This document shows, piece by piece, positions 54,492 to 57,198 of a stretch of 64,000 nt of DNA. Under the pieces are notes generated by a model. The model made no database searches, was not told where the DNA came from, and saw nothing but the letters and a program-made list of their open reading frames with translations. The stretch is taken from IMG/VR virus record IMGVR_UViG_3300002092_001548, positions 74,209-138,208 of that record; one strand, 5' to 3'. Position 1 is the first letter of the stretch; each line of letters opens with the position of its first letter. The stretch comes from a virus. The position numbers were made by a program, and so were the translations under genes.

Positions 54492-54924
54492 GGGGGCGTA
54501 CTGGCTTCGACTCATATTCGGAGTTTGTATAGCATGCAGTAGTTGATCTGTGGCTACTTAAAAACGGATTAAAAACTAAACGCAAAGGCAATAACCAATG
54601 CAGTTAGCGCAGTTAAGTCAGCAATGACAAATGTTGTAGAATTCTTCTGCGAAGAAGAGAGCTACGCATTAGCCGCCTAACTCTAACAGAGGATCCTATT
54701 AAATCTTTTAGAAATCGTAGTAGGTTGAGTTAATCATGTGTTACTCGTTAAATAAGCATGAGGGTGTCTGTAGACTCTTCACTATAGAAGGTAGGACTCA
54801 AAACATGGATGGGTTAACAAGCCCTCGCAACCTTTAGTCAACCAAATGCGGAATTTGTTTAAGCATGTAGAAGTATAAATAAAAAAGTATGAACACGCGG
54901 GTTCGAATCCCGCCGCTTCCACCA
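54492..54924 (+). ncRNA. ssrA: tmRNA
   Basis: 5' GGGGGCG..TTCGAC; pk1 GTAGTT/GGCTAC plus GATCTGT/ACGGATT; tag frame 54582-54680 ending YALAA*; 3' T-arm GGTTCGAATCC and ACCA. Confidence 0.93.
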
Positions 54925-55004: not shown

Positions 55005-55075
55005 GCCTGACAAGCATTGTGGCGATGCCCCGGTTTTGTAAACCGGAAAGCAGGGTTCAATTCCCTGGTTAGGCT
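55005..55075 (+). tRNA. tRNA-Thr(TGT)
   Basis: GCCTGAC/GTTAGGC, CCGGT-ttTGTaa-ACCGG; A at position 8; no CCA. Confidence 0.8.
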
Positions 55076-55707
55076 GACTTTTTTCTGTTTCTTTTACTAT
55101 TCTTATTTAATGCCCTGAAGTTTGGAGTTAAACTATGACAATTGGGACAAAGTAATTCTAAGTTTTCTTCTTTTGAATTTGCTGCATCACCGTCAATATG
55201 ATTAACCTCTAAAGGAATTTTTTTAGTAGTAAAATTTATTTTGCACCAACCACACTTGCAACATTTTGAATTGAATTTTTCAAAAAGATATCTTCTAAGC
55301 CAAGGTGGTACTAACATTGTTTTTCCACTATATCCTTTATTCGTCCCATCTTTCCATTGTTTAATAACAGTCTCATTTTTTTCTTTTGCTTGACAGGAAT
55401 TGGAACAATATTTTCTATTAGATCTCGATGATCTAAATGTTACGGAACATTTTAAACATGTTATTTTCTTTTTTTCTTTTCTCACATTGTTAAAAATAGC
55501 ACTACATGAATGAGAACAAAATTTATTAAATCGTTTTTCATGGGAAATTGCACCTCCACATTGAAAACATTTTTTAGGATTATCATTATAATCATTAATT
55601 CTTTTTTGAGAGGCGGCTTGATGCAAGTTTTTAGTTTTTAACCATCCGAGAGTACCACACTCCGATTTAGAGAGTTTGCCTTTCTTGTTTATCGAATTGT
55701 CATTCAT
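55069..55707 (-). mobile_element. HNH homing endonuclease with Zn-finger repeats
   Basis: CxxC..FCSxxC repeats; LEVNHIDG..N..NLELLCPNCH. Confidence 0.85.
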
Positions 55708-55785
55708 ATCTATGAATACACTTATATAGTATCTTCGACTCTCAATTAAGGCATTTTAAATTTTTCTTGATATAAAAGTCAAATG

Positions 55786-55834
55786 GTGTAATAATCTATC
55801 TATAGTAGATTTATTTCTATATTGATCTTTGATA
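55786..55834 (+). promoter_or_regulatory. second stable-RNA leader: GTGTAA, hairpin, boxA-like TGATCTTTGATA
   Basis: GTGTAA 55786; AATCTA/TAGATT hairpin 55793-55811; TGATCTTTGATA 55823-55834. Confidence 0.65.
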
Positions 55835-55854
55835 CATTTTAAATTTCGGTTAAA

Positions 55855-55928
55855 TTTCCAATGGTGCGCCCGACCGAATGGCGCATCGAAACCAGAGGAA
55901 ACGTTTGCGAGAGTTCGTCGAAACTCGC
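55855..55928 (+). ncRNA. unannotated structured element
   Basis: TTTCC/GGAAA, TGGT/ACCA, GCGCC/GGCGC stems, then a GCGAG/CTCGC hairpin; GC-rich versus background. Confidence 0.45.
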
Positions 55929-55937
55929 CCCTTTCAT

Positions 55938-56012
55938 GCGTTGGTGGCAGACAAGAAATGCAGCAGTCTCCAAAACTGCCCCATGTGGGAGCGTTACCCA
56001 CCCAACGTGCCA
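55938..56012 (+). tRNA. tRNA-Trp(CCA), non-canonical D/T loops
   Basis: GCGTTGG/CCAACGT, GCAGT-ctCCAaa-ACTGC, T-arm GTGGG-AGCGTTA-CCCAC, G73, CCA. Confidence 0.75.
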
Positions 56013-56022
56013 ATTACGCAGT

Positions 56023-56244
56023 TCCTAATGTGTGCGCGTAACATCAGGAGGAAACTCCCATTAGGACGATTTTACATATTCGGAAGCCCCTCTCCCCGAT
56101 TGCAAGGTTAGGTGAAGGTCTCCGGAGTTCTTGGTGCATACAAAACTCAGACATAATTCGGGACGCTGAAGGTTCTGAGGACAAAAACACCATCCAATTT
56201 ATCAAACCTCCCGCGCCTCTTCAAGAATGCGTAATTCGGGAGGT
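56023..56244 (+). ncRNA. run of four unannotated structured elements
   Basis: TCCTAATG/CATTAGGA junction; CGGA..GCAA..TCCG hairpin; TGGTG/CACCA plus CTCAGA/TCTGAG rod with A-rich bubble; ACCTCCCG/CGGGAGGT stem. Confidence 0.5.
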
Positions 56245-56252
56245 ATTATTTC

Positions 56253-56327
56253 CGCAGAGTAGAGAACTGGTATCTCGTTACGCTCATAACGTAAAGGCAG
56301 TGGGTTCGATTCCCACCTCTGCCACCA
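56253..56327 (+). tRNA. tRNA-Met(CAT), initiator-like
   Basis: C1xC72 mismatch, G2-C71, C3-G70, A11-U24, A73, CCA; anticodon stem TTACG/CGTAA. Confidence 0.85.
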
Positions 56328-56332
56328 TTTTA

Positions 56333-56408
56333 GTTTCAGTAGTGAACTGGAATATCACGCAACGCTACGGACGTTGAGAACAAGGTTCGATTCCTTGCTG
56401 AAGCACCA
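56333..56408 (+). tRNA. tRNA-Arg(ACG)
   Basis: GTTTCAG/CTGAAGC, ctACGga, CCA. Confidence 0.9.
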
Positions 56409-56416
56409 TTTAGTAT

Positions 56417-56540
56417 ACTGAACGGGCCTCTGTACATACAAGCTATCTCACGTTCAGTTTTTTTTATGTGACAAAAAAACAGTAGACTTTTCGCGTTTTC
56501 ACTCCAAATCTAGCGTAAGCGGAACCCACTAGTAGTACCA
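56417..56540 (+). ncRNA. unannotated structured element(s) between tRNA-Arg and tRNA-Gly
   Basis: ACTGAACG/CGTTCAGT stem, T8/A7 hairpin, further stem; ends in ACCA. Confidence 0.4.
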
Positions 56541-56545
56541 ATTAA

Positions 56546-56617
56546 GGGAGTATAGCTCAATGGTAGAGCGTTTCGTTGCCAACGAAATTGTTGTGAGTTC
56601 GAGTCTCATTACTCCCT
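56546..56617 (+). tRNA. tRNA-Gly(GCC)
   Basis: GGGAGTA/TACTCCC, ttGCCaa, U73; no full CCA. Confidence 0.9.
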
Positions 56618-56679
56618 CGCTTGGAAATATCTATTTGATTATTTAATTGATATAGCAATATTTCAGTGTAAGTATATTT

Positions 56680-57198
56680 ATGCTTATAGATAAAAAATGC
56701 CCAGTTTGTGATAAACTGTTTCAATGGGGTAAAAATAGAAAAAAACAACAAATAACATGTTCCAGAAATTGTTCTAATACCTTTTTTAAAAGAAGGACTC
56801 CAGAAAAACCAATTAAATTTAATTGTGCAATATGCGATACGGAATCAATTAGGAGATACGGAAAAGCTAAAAATAAATTCTGTAGTCACGAGTGTTTTTT
56901 AAAAGATCTAAAGGAAAACACCTTATCTCGTTTTAACAAAGGAGAGGTACATCAAAGACCAACTTTAAGAAAGTTAATATCTGCTAGAAATGGATATAAA
57001 TGCAACTGTTGTGGTATAAGTAAATGGAATAATATACCTATAACACTTCAAGTCAATCACATTGATGGAAATTGCACAAATAACCTTCCAAAAAATTTAG
57101 AATTAATTTGCCCAAATTGCCACTCACAAACCCCAACGTTTGGTGGTCGTAACAAAGGGAGCGGTAGAAAAGCAAGGGGCCTACCAAGACATTTTTAA
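56680..57198 (+). mobile_element. HNH homing endonuclease with Zn-finger repeats
   Basis: CxxC..CSxxC repeats; LQVNHIDGN..NN..NLELICPNCH. Confidence 0.85.

Follow-up and report, generated by a model that had tools for sequence, protein, structure and literature searches.

The window, i.e. the whole stretch of 64,000 nucleotides analysed here, belongs to a 138,208-bp phage record and carries a tRNA cluster in which an initiator-type tRNA(CAU) is located between tRNA-Trp(CCA) and tRNA-Arg(ACG) (Table 1). ARAGORN called this gene as a tRNA-Met(cat) of 75 nt including the encoded CCA, and in a search of the whole window positions 56253-56324 matched the Rfam tRNA model with 59.4 bits (E 2.5e-10; gathering score 29). 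Folding for minimum free energy yields the cloverleaf, in which position 1 is unpaired; its z-score of −1.35, with 19 out of 200 shuffles equally stable, is not significant taken alone. The tRNA(CAU) and the tRNA-Arg(ACG) are probably part of one transcript. The weak terminator-like hairpin at the end of the unit (−10.9 kcal/mol, z −1.39) received no call in the terminator scan. The hairpin upstream of the tRNA(CAU) matches the abiF RNA motif over its full length (model 1-37 of 37) with 34.7 bits compared to a gathering score of 37, and is regarded as context only. The abiF RNA is an antitoxin-like partner of AbiF.

Table 1. Coordinates of the tRNA(CAU) gene, its structural parts and its neighbourhood in the window.
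Feature	Position	Strand	Remarks
Initiator-type tRNA(CAU)	56253..56327	+	A73 at 56324, CCA at 56325-56327; ARAGORN, Rfam RF00005
Acceptor 5' strand CGCAGAG	56253..56259	+	Pairs with 56317-56323; sequence, fold
Acceptor pairs G2:C71, C3:G70, A4:U69, G5:C68, A6:U67, G7:C66			Mismatch C1 (56253) x C72 (56323)
D arm GAGA-ACUGGUA-UCUC	56262..56276	+	A11:U24 = 56263/56275; G12:C23
Anticodon arm UUACG-CUCAUAA-CGUAA	56278..56294	+	CAT at 56285-56287
Anticodon stem U27:A43, U28:A42, A29:U41, C30:G40, G31:C39	56278-56282 with 56290-56294		
Sprinzl positions 29-31 (A, C, G) and 39-41 (C, G, U)	56280-56282; 56290-56292		
T arm GUGGG-UUCGAUU-CCCAC	56300..56316	+	ARAGORN
38-nt hairpin, 8 nt upstream of tRNA(CAU)	56207..56244	+	abiF RNA motif RF03085, sub-threshold
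tRNA-Arg(ACG), 5 nt downstream of tRNA(CAU)	56333..56408	+	ARAGORN, Rfam
Long-loop hairpin then U run, terminator-like end of Trp-Met-Arg unit (weak)	56417..56465	+	
tRNA-Trp(CCA), head of tRNA cluster	55938..56012	+	ARAGORN; below Rfam gathering score
Promoter-like sites upstream of tRNA-Trp	55767-55795; 55829-55856		Promoter scan: 5 found compared to 2.4 expected

Megablast of 20 kb gave no match among the GenBank phages, and the DnaE-type polymerase of the phage found only matches below 33% identity, so that no close relative can be named among the GenBank phages. A contig from a Flavobacteriia MAG with a tRNA/tmRNA array (L043) is unrelated to this phage. WhiB had no match in the phage. 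Likewise, the domains IF3_C, Formyl_trans_N, Pep_deformylase and PIN were without a match in the phage record, which is approximately 89% complete. The phage must therefore rely on the enzymes of the host.

According to ARAGORN this is the sole CAU tRNA of the record, although a second one could be missing as the record is estimated to be only about 89% complete. A regular-expression search of the whole record returned five CAU anticodon arms with five paired stem positions, and only the one at 56253-56327 stands in a tRNA context. The record possesses a separate tRNA(UAU) for reading AUA. All 17 other tRNAs carry a pyrimidine at position 11 in place of A11, and in all 17 the ARAGORN output has positions 1 and 72 paired. 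The full set of initiator marks in the acceptor stem and the D arm is thus found in one tRNA out of 18. The canonical E. coli initiator (metZWV/metY) shares with the phage tRNA the CAU anticodon, the CUCAUAA loop, the unpaired 1:72, G2:C71, C3:G70, A11:U24, G12:C23, A73 and G31:C39. The phage tRNA differs from it by the lack of G29:C41 and G30:C40, by a D stem GAGA/UCUC instead of GAGC/GCUC, and by C1xC72 and A4:U69 where the E. coli initiator has C1xA72 and G4:C69. A distant blastn search with the tRNA(CAU) found no match in E. coli genomes.

The assignment of a tRNA(CAU) to the initiator, the elongator or the Ile2 type can be made with published discriminators. A11:U24 and G12:C23 are described as complete discriminators of fMet genes against Met and Ile2, a mismatch or weak pair at 1:72 as the acceptor hallmark of fMet, and G2:C71, C3:G70 and A73 are given as formylation features; Ile2 is marked by G3/A3 or C70/U70, frequently C4:G69 and C5:G68, and Y11:R24 (all according to PMC1635315). 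The phage tRNA possesses every one of the initiator features, including the CUCAUAA loop. It departs from Ile2 by C3:G70, A4:U69, G5:C68 and A11:U24, and from elongator tRNA-Met, with its Watson-Crick 1:72 pair and Y11:R24, by C1xC72 and A11:U24. These discriminators support an initiator-type tRNA that is neither elongator Met nor Ile2. The initiator identity proposed in an earlier note on this DNA is therefore supported, and the formylation determinants listed there (C1xC72, G2:C71, C3:G70, A11:U24, A73) are all present in the sequence and in the ARAGORN structure.

The same note had described the tRNA as lacking the three G:C pairs of the anticodon stem. This holds insofar as the stem 29:41/30:40/31:39 reads A:U, C:G, G:C, without three consecutive G:C pairs and different from GGG/CCC; as a description it is too coarse, since G31:C39 is kept and A:U at 29:41 is common in natural initiators. 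Cellular fMet genes follow the rule R29 G30 G31 / Y39 C40 Y41, with R29 G30 G31 conserved across 457 bacterial genes in the account given by PMC1635315. The phage tRNA breaks this rule at two bases, C30 and G40. The exceptional feature is the flipped C30:G40 pair, not the absence of the three G:C pairs as such, and GGG/CCC is retained in only 21 out of 78 sampled phage initiator-like tRNAs. In a search that left the stem unconstrained, 94 distinct phage initiator-like tRNAs carried G:C (85) or C:G (9) at 30:40 and nothing else. In the same 94 tRNAs position 29:41 is occupied by A:U (60), G:C (25) or U:A (9), and at 27:43 and 28:42 every type of pair was seen. Such a strict G/C pair at 30:40, next to variable pairs at 29:41, 27:43 and 28:42, indicates that selection maintains a G/C pair where A1339 makes its contact. 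G30 is named as the most crucial base by the E. coli work.

The gene is conserved beyond the window. Among related phage contigs it is 89-97% identical while the flanking DNA reaches only about 70-77%. A search by a D-arm pattern, leaving the anticodon stem free, yielded 26 IMG/VR loci, of which 14 share A29:U41/C30:G40/G31:C39. Their pairs 27:43 and 28:42 are UU/AA as in the window, UC/GA or CA/UG, i.e. the changes are compensatory, and C1xC72 together with A73 occurs in 15 out of 15 tRNAs with this stem. Of the cloverleaf cells, 95.2% are paired in 33 phage and prophage initiator-like sequences compared to 76.3% after shuffling, with none of 500 shuffles as high, and changes on both sides were observed at 15 out of 21 cloverleaf pairs. 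Positions 1 and 72 are unpaired in 25 of these 33 tRNAs and form G:C or C:G in none.

We delimit the class, which is not a published family, by an initiator D arm (U24 C25 G26), C30 G31/C39 G40, a weak or absent 1:72 pair and location in phage or prophage DNA; the tRNA of the window has all of these features. The class is restricted to phages: the C30:G40 arm was found in 111 IMG/VR stretches compared to 14 stretches in a set of 185,579 bacterial species genomes, and the seven of these bacterial stretches that were examined all adjoin phage genes, usually with a normal G30 copy present as well. The prophages concerned reside in Alphaproteobacteria and a spirochaete. Fifty-eight distinct C30:G40 tRNAs from IMG/VR comprise 22 different stem variants, all fully paired; a strong 1:72 pair occurs in only two of them, G2:C71 in 51, A73 in 52 and C3:G70 in 44, with U.G in a further seven. 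In 49 out of 78 cases the C30:G40 tRNA is the only tRNA of the fetched stretch. Compared with the G30 copy in their own genome, the C30 variants show 67-85% identity; among themselves they reach up to 92%, a value that is inflated by the shared stems. This closer similarity to each other than to the host copy is an argument for phage-borne lineages rather than fresh host copies; convergent capture from each host was dropped as unsupported by these identities. Regarding the neighbourhood, 1,842 open reading frames within 2.5 kb of the tRNA were clustered over 95 loci, and no family is present in more than eight loci, the commonest being terminase, portal, DnaB-like helicase or unknown. Literature searches, covering the main texts of freely accessible papers, found no report of phage initiator tRNAs without the three G:C pairs.

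The best reading, to which we give about even chances, is that the product of the gene works as a phage initiator which can be formylated and carries a minimal P-site signature. The tRNA would be charged by the MetRS of the host on account of its CAU anticodon and A73, and formylated by the host formyltransferase, which would recognize the unpaired 1:72, G2:C71, C3:G70 and A11:U24. An unpaired 1:72 disfavours binding of EF-Tu, and because of this EF-Tu would mostly pass over the phage tRNA. IF2 could then deliver it to the P site, where it would start proteins during infection. The minimal signature in the stem may consist of a strong G/C pair at 30:40, in this case C:G, together with G31:C39. 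The loss of GGG/CCC might reflect a different selective regime on accessory copies in phages. As such copies serve a single infection cycle beside the host initiator, the fidelity constraints on 29:41, on 31:39 and on the orientation of 30:40 could be relaxed, and a G/C pair at 30:40 would still be needed for the minor-groove contact of A1339. Relaxed selection alone fails to account for the many stretches in which the C30:G40 tRNA is the sole tRNA.

Biochemical work on E. coli bears on this reading from both sides. Mutants with C30:G40 are reported to be fully aminoacylated and formylated (PMC2268962; PMC5389676), and their A-minor contact is described as weakened but formed, and partly restored by IF2 (PMC11497404). 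According to the latter source the same single change lowers initiation in E. coli approximately 20-fold, which speaks against a working initiator, as do the statements in PMC5389676 that the mid-CG initiator fails to sustain growth and that mutants without G30 are toxic. The hosts themselves offer no apparent compensation: the xFRGR motif of IF3 is kept in nine out of nine and the SKR tail of uS9 in ten out of ten genomes holding C30 loci, where R131 of IF3 was taken as the middle R of RFRGR following PMC11775629. A relaxed proofreading of the mycoplasma type was thereby ruled out for the hosts of C30 prophages. A further hint in favour of a working initiator arises from a reconstituted mitochondrial system for leaderless mRNAs, which accepts either G:C or C:G at 30:40 in the description of PMC11775629. 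The phage class suggests that outside E. coli the minimal need is the strength of the 30:40 pair and not its orientation, in line with what was recently shown for mitochondria.

The nearest counterparts differ from the phage tRNA in instructive ways. The E. coli laboratory mutant M1 (“C30G40”, “mid CG”) likewise combines an initiator body with a single flip of 30:40 to C:G. It is engineered and keeps G29:C41. The phage gene occurs naturally, has A29:U41, carries C1xC72 where the mutant has C1xA72, and shows conservation within a clade of phages. The au/GC/GC initiators described for Alphaproteobacteria, chloroplasts and some mycoplasmas (PMC1635315; PMC5389676) share A29:U41 and the marks of acceptor and D arm, but retain G30:C40 besides G31:C39, so that the phage tRNA departs from them at 30:40; the G30 copies in seven out of nine prophage hosts possess this AGG/CCU stem. 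Mammalian mitochondrial tRNA-Met with IF-3mt represents a system for leaderless mRNAs, and initiation there works with C:G at 30:40. One must keep in mind that the natural mitochondrial tRNA keeps its three G:C pairs and is used for elongation as well as for initiation, the tolerance of C:G being derived from engineered variants only, as stated in PMC11775629.

The three G:C pairs, G30 foremost, are textbook determinants of initiator function. A conserved class restricted to phages that flips 30:40, and yet keeps every mark for formylation and a strict G/C pair at this position, serves as a natural experiment in P-site requirements. It provides candidates for asking why, in many phages, the sole tRNA is an initiator and whether defences directed at tRNAs reach the initiator, and might serve in practice as a starting point for orthogonal initiation systems. 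If these tRNAs were poor initiators everywhere, they would indicate a non-canonical role of formylatable tRNAs in infection.

The altered stem could alternatively be adaptive and allow the tRNA to evade a nuclease, of host or phage origin, that reads the canonical stem-loop of the initiator. A VapC-type PIN toxin would be an example, VapC having been named in the earlier note. The phage copy would sustain initiation once the host tRNAfMet has been cut; position 40 would matter in particular, which lies two nucleotides away from the junction 38/39. We regard this as possible, albeit rather doubtful, by analogy with known systems. From Shigella, Salmonella, Leptospira, NTHi and Bosea, VapC homologues are reported that cut tRNAfMet at the border of anticodon stem and loop, depending on sequence as well as structure (PMC8522696; PMC4705866). 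The C30 prophage lineages, i.e. Alphaproteobacteria and a spirochaete, have relatives for which VapCs of this kind are described. Evasion by altered anticodon arms is known for other phage-borne versions of host tRNA species: loop changes are reported to protect phage tRNAs from anticodon nucleases (PMC10264068), and changes in the anticodon stem to protect a phage tRNA-Thr from P2-OLD (PMC12445682). These are elongators, and the resistance of the tRNA-Thr was determined experimentally, whereas the present tRNA is an initiator known from its sequence. Positions 39-41 are highly diverse in phage initiator-like tRNAs and near-invariant in the cellular ones compiled in PMC1635315. The frequent occurrence as sole tRNA is no matter of codon supply, and the near-threshold abiF-motif RNA next to the gene hints at an anti-defence cassette. 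The loop and the A38-C39 junction of the phage tRNA are unaltered, which weakens the argument, as do the lack of a shared protein neighbour across the 95 loci and the observation in PMC10264068 that tRNA-fMet is mostly not encoded by phages where VapC-LT2 is present.

Both the stem and the translation signals of the phage could be combined into a private initiation channel. In this broader proposal, which we judge unlikely, the flip would hide phage initiators from host or phage factors reading the canonical stem-loop and leave them usable on phage mRNAs that lack a Shine-Dalgarno (SD) sequence or a leader, with the abiF-like RNA in the same anti-defence cassette. If it were true, phage protein synthesis would persist or even gain after cleavage of the host tRNAfMet or a shutdown of host initiation.

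The earlier note had also related the stem to leaderless genes, meaning that the tRNA would be tuned to 70S or to weakly proofread, IF3-insensitive initiation on the SD-less or leaderless mRNAs of the phage; this appears quite improbable to us. The phage is indeed poor in SD-like motifs, which, given crude start calls, precede 12 out of 173 open reading frames compared to 50 out of 468 internal ATGs. With the same crude calls, the first start is preceded at a distance of 4-9 nt by a −10-like TANNNT box in 59 of 173 open reading frames compared to 55 of 468 internal ATGs, and a full TTG-N16-18-TANNNT in 17 of 173 compared to 0 of 468. The uncertainty of these calls counts against the argument, and non-AUG starts are not enriched after leaderless-type promoters (ATG 20, CTG 1 of 264). 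Pooled C30 loci combine, in a crude comparison of four tRNA classes, the lowest SD enrichment (1.65 compared to 2.2-3.3) with the highest −10 enrichment (2.93 compared to 0.9-2.1). The trend is weak and confounded: the loci are non-independent, and taken singly their SD fractions overlap fully (medians 0.14 compared to 0.17, 0.11 and 0.25). Precedents are provided by PMC11775629, in which, besides the mitochondrial tolerance of C:G, E. coli IF3 R131P is said to favour both initiators with altered G:C pairs and leaderless mRNAs, and mycoplasmas are said to combine altered pairs, SD-less mRNAs and altered IF3 and uS9. The canonical IF3 and uS9 motifs of the C30 prophage hosts disagree with such a parallel, and G1338 and A1339 are described in PMC11497404 as reading the stem also in 70S complexes, so that the contact would persist in 70S initiation.

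Use as an elongator or dual-use Met tRNA, supplying internal Met also or solely, is very unlikely. The tRNA is the sole CAU tRNA of the record, the elongator tRNA-Met of E. coli has C30:G40 and M1 is elongator-like in reading P-site codons (PMC11497404), and the single mitochondrial tRNA-Met sets a precedent for dual use (PMC11775629). Against this stand the 1:72 mismatch and R11:Y24, which elongators do not have according to PMC1635315 and which no other tRNA of the record possesses, as well as the lack of a strong 1:72 pair in all 33 relatives. In addition, a further CAU tRNA of elongator style (Y11:R24) stands beside the initiator-like one in the related contigs L009/L031 and L015. Binding of EF-Tu, being disfavoured by an unpaired 1:72, likewise speaks against use in elongation.

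Hardly credible is a tRNA that is no substrate of translation at all, whether it titrates a host factor as a decoy or sponge, poisons initiation on purpose or is a pseudogene in decay. In favour of such a role, mutants without G30 were toxic to E. coli when the strain had too little initiator tRNA (PMC5389676). Against it, the full cloverleaf with its compensatory changes, the strict G/C pair at 30:40, the intact CUCAUAA and T loops, the encoded CCA, and the conservation of the gene within diverged flanks all argue for a maintained tRNA.

The minimum-free-energy fold of tRNA(CAU) is a cloverleaf with nucleotide 1 unpaired. The acceptor stem shows a C1xC72 mismatch, the pairs G2:C71, C3:G70 and A4:U69, and the discriminator A73; the D stem (GAGA/UCUC) includes A11:U24 and G12:C23, and the anticodon loop is CUCAUAA. 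All sequence features listed in the earlier note are thus present. According to a survey of 1,070 CAU tRNA genes (PMC1635315), fMet genes are completely discriminated by A11:T24 and G12:C23, essentially all of them have A11 and T24, and a weak A:U or U:A pair occasionally takes the place of the C1-A72 mismatch, while lysidine Ile tRNAs are marked by G3/A3/C70/T70 and C4:G69/C5:G68. By these criteria the gene is, judged by its sequence, initiator-type as had been proposed, and neither elongator Met nor Ile2. The initiator marks are specific to it among the tRNAs of the record, as all 17 others have a pyrimidine at position 11 and are drawn by ARAGORN with 1:72 paired. A regular-expression scan of the whole record gave no second CAU arm in a tRNA context (one of five perfect-stem matches was tRNA(CAU) itself). 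The record encodes a separate UAU-anticodon tRNA, and therefore no CAU tRNA is needed for reading AUA. This UAU tRNA has a long variable arm, and its type II body is an odd companion of an Ile anticodon. Two relatives carry a second CAU tRNA of the elongator Met or Ile2 type, which is absent from the present record.

Coordinates of the tRNA(CAU) gene, its neighborhood and related features
Feature	Location	Strand	Basis
tRNA(CAU), 75 nt, encoded CCA	window 56253-56327	+	ARAGORN; Rfam tRNA model 59.4 bits (gathering 29)
38-nt hairpin, 8 nt upstream of tRNA(CAU)	window 56207-56244	+	abiF RNA motif RF03085, full model, 34.7 bits (gathering 37)
Second abiF-motif copy, related contig	L032 4291-4328		34.0 bits, sub-threshold
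tmRNA, phage-encoded	window 54492-54924	+	Rfam 97.4 bits
tRNA-Trp(CCA)	window 55938-56012	+	ARAGORN; not reported by Rfam at gathering threshold
ORF flanking tRNA cluster	window 55069-55707	-	HNH endonuclease domain, Pfam 23.9 bits
Opposite flanking ORF	window 56680-57198		no Pfam match at E≤0.001
UAU-anticodon tRNA, 94 nt, outside window	G000:C1:6675-6768	-	ARAGORN, tRNA-Ile
Homologue of UAU tRNA	L031 7514-7628		
Second CAU tRNA of relatives	L009 8-83; L031 7045-7120		C1:G72, C4:G69, C11:G24
Weak twister-P1 matches, related contigs	L011 5407-5483; L020 6081-6157; L023 5008-5084; L029 5951-6027; L027 1100-1175		25.8 bits (gathering 67.2)

The anticodon stem consists of U27:A43, U28:A42, A29:U41, C30:G40 and G31:C39. 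The claim that the initiator GGG/CCC (3GC, positions 29-31/39-41) is missing holds for the full motif, but the key oddity is narrower, namely the flipped 30:40 pair. GGG/CCC is reported to be absent in 15% of bacterial fMet genes, with R29 G30 G31/Y39 C40 Y41 conserved (PMC1635315), and A29:U41 to occur in all Alphaproteobacteria and some mycoplasmas (PMC5389676); A29:U41 thus belongs to the known natural variation. C30:G40 does not, and our literature search found no report of a natural C30:G40 initiator. The identical flip exists in a laboratory mutant of E. coli tRNAfMet (C30G40, mid CG or M1), from which the phage gene differs in being natural and in carrying A29:U41 in addition. The mutant reportedly undergoes full aminoacylation and formylation yet has defects in P-site binding and initiation (PMC2268962), and it is unable to sustain E. 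coli, G30 being termed the most crucial base (PMC5389676). Translation is approximately 20-fold lower, the A-minor contacts of A1339/G1338 are weakened and discrimination against CUG is lost; C30:G40 is also the pair of elongator tRNA-Met (PMC11497404). tRNA(CAU) is hence a natural M1-type initiator that also carries A29:U41, a sharper finding than the loss of 3GC. AGG/CCU further occurs in the G30 initiator-type genes of two MAGs, one Prevotella and one Paludibacteraceae, so the au/GC/GC form may be native outside the Alphaproteobacteria too. The Prevotella copy lies 30 kb from a prophage variant on one contig.

To place this stem among phage tRNAs we searched IMG/VR with sequence patterns, all of which detect only tRNAs with GGUA-N-CUCG ahead of the anticodon stem; the samples are not phylogenetically independent. 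The broader pattern (U24 C25 G26, free stem, T arm) matched at least 118 stretches, with a CAU tRNA in 78 of the 80 loci listed. As only 21 of these 78 carry GGG/CCC (AGG 33, other G30 21, C30 3, among the matches listed), loss of the full 3GC is the norm for phage-borne initiator-like tRNAs, and loss of G30 is rare. We found no literature report of phage initiator-type tRNAs abandoning 3GC as a class. Pooling two stem-unconstrained sets gave 94 distinct sequences among the matches listed, in which 30:40 is G:C in 85, C:G in 9 and nothing else. A G/C pair is thus invariant at this position, while 29:41 is A:U (60), G:C (25) or U:A (9), 31:39 is G:C (72), C:G (10), U.G (8) or other (4), and every pair type occurs at 27:43 and 28:42.

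A pattern of the tRNA(CAU) D arm and loop with the stem left free matched 26 loci, none with GGG/CCC. A29:U41/C30:G40/G31:C39 occurs in 14 of them, with outer pairs UC/GA or CA/UG compared to UU/AA in the window; these differences all keep pairing and are therefore compensatory. C1xC72 and A73 are common to all 15 sequences. Several of these contigs are relatives of the window phage: L011, L016, L020, L023 and L029 share its tmRNA-Trp-Met order, and their genes are 94% identical to tRNA(CAU) over the blastn match (L011 97% in global alignment) compared to about 70% in the flanks. In L009, L027 and L031 the gene adjoins homologues of the other tRNA cluster of the record. In an alignment of 33 phage and prophage initiator-like sequences (excluding GiJojo L005, Lak-A2 L007 and the second L021 tRNA) pairing holds in 95.2% of cells, compared to 76.3% in shuffles, none of 500 reaching the observed value, and 42-49% in slid controls; at 15 of 21 pairs both bases change. 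Position 1:72, free in every search pattern, is unpaired in 25 and U:A, A:U or G.U in the other 8, with no G:C or C:G.

A C30-specific pattern (C30 G31/C39 G40 in the initiator D-arm context) matched 111 IMG/VR stretches, but only 14 in 185,579 bacterial and archaeal species, one genome each (CAU tRNA confirmed by ARAGORN in 13). The 80 IMG/VR loci listed hold 58 distinct tRNAs with 22 different anticodon stems, all paired; 1:72 is strongly paired in 2, and G2:C71 is present in 51, C3:G70 in 44 (U.G in 7 more) and A73 in 52. In 49 of 78 loci among the matches listed it is the sole tRNA of the fetched stretch. Terminase, portal or major head genes lie beside it in all seven genome loci examined. 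Nine of ten examined genomes have a G30 initiator-type gene elsewhere (AGG/CCU in seven of nine); none was found in an incomplete Chlamydiales MAG, whose match lies on a 4-kb contig that also carries a terminase. The C30 variants are up to 92% identical to each other, compared to 67-85% with the G30 copy in the same genome, and are phage-borne lineages. That phages encode tRNA-Met genes and that au/GC/GC initiators occur naturally is already known; new is the 30:40 flip as the exceptional feature, limited to phages and prophages, with G/C invariant at 30:40. In five of the seven loci (L034, L035, L037, L038, L042) the C30 tRNA and the large terminase gene are no more than about 2 kb apart; in L037 the tRNA lies between terminase and portal.

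With regard to function, IF3, formyltransferase, deformylase and PIN nuclease were not detectable by Pfam in the record (about 89% complete), so any use of tRNA(CAU) would rely on host enzymes. It would be charged and formylated by these and dock in the P site via A1339, in keeping with the intact formylation marks, the never strong 1:72 and the strict G/C at 30:40. Since cryo-EM also shows the C30:G40 contact with A1339 weakened and not abolished, with partial restoration by IF2 (PMC11497404), we see about an even chance that tRNA(CAU) functions as a phage initiator whose stem retains a minimal signature. Loss of the canonical stem is most simply explained by relaxed selection for fidelity in an accessory copy. 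An adaptive reason, escape from nucleases, is suggested by analogy though rather unlikely: tRNAfMet-specific VapC toxins are reported to act on the anticodon stem-loop (PMC8522696, PMC4705866), phage tRNAs to evade anticodon nucleases (PMC10264068) and stem changes to free a phage tRNA-Thr from the stem-cutting P2-OLD (PMC12445682). Phages are described as mostly not encoding tRNA-fMet where VapC-LT2 occurs (PMC10264068).

The earlier idea of leaderless or low-IF3 initiation we consider improbable. It draws on an SD-poor genome with -10-like boxes directly ahead of many starts: by crude ORF calls over the whole record, an SD-like motif precedes 12 of 173 ORF starts compared to 50 of 468 internal ATGs, TANNNT 4-9 nt upstream 59 compared to 55, and the full TTG-N16-18-TANNNT 17 compared to 0. 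A mitochondrial leaderless system is also reported to take C:G at 30:40 (PMC11775629). However, the hosts of C30 prophages keep canonical motifs in IF3 (9/9) and uS9 (10/10), an absence of relaxation that is likewise new, and a comparison of SD use between the tRNA classes yields just a weak trend. Dual or elongator use is very improbable and a non-translational role even more so, as both fit the data poorly.

The virus record is a single contig of 138,208 bp (37% G+C), and the window is its final 64 kb. CheckV estimates a completeness of 89% for the record, so that about a tenth of the genome may be absent. PHROG matches include a DnaE-type polymerase, a DnaB-like helicase, ribonucleotide reductase and a UvsX-like recombinase, and ARAGORN predicts 18 tRNAs plus one tmRNA for the record, 13 of these tRNAs and the tmRNA within the window. 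abiF RNA has an antitoxin-like role, and the hairpin beside tRNA(CAU), slightly below the gathering threshold, may serve as an antitoxin-like decoy RNA carried by the phage. Its neighborhood showed no AbiF-type protein domain, since Pfam at E≤0.001 on five neighboring ORFs gave HNH in one and no family in four. The weak twister-P1 matches lie about 430 nt from tRNA-Met in the related contigs; none occurs within window 55700-56700. In tRNA-Trp(CCA) both the T loop and the D arm are atypical. The predicted tag of the tmRNA is unusually long (32 residues, ending in ALAA), and homologues of the tmRNA (114.8 bits) occur in L011, L020, L023 and L029.
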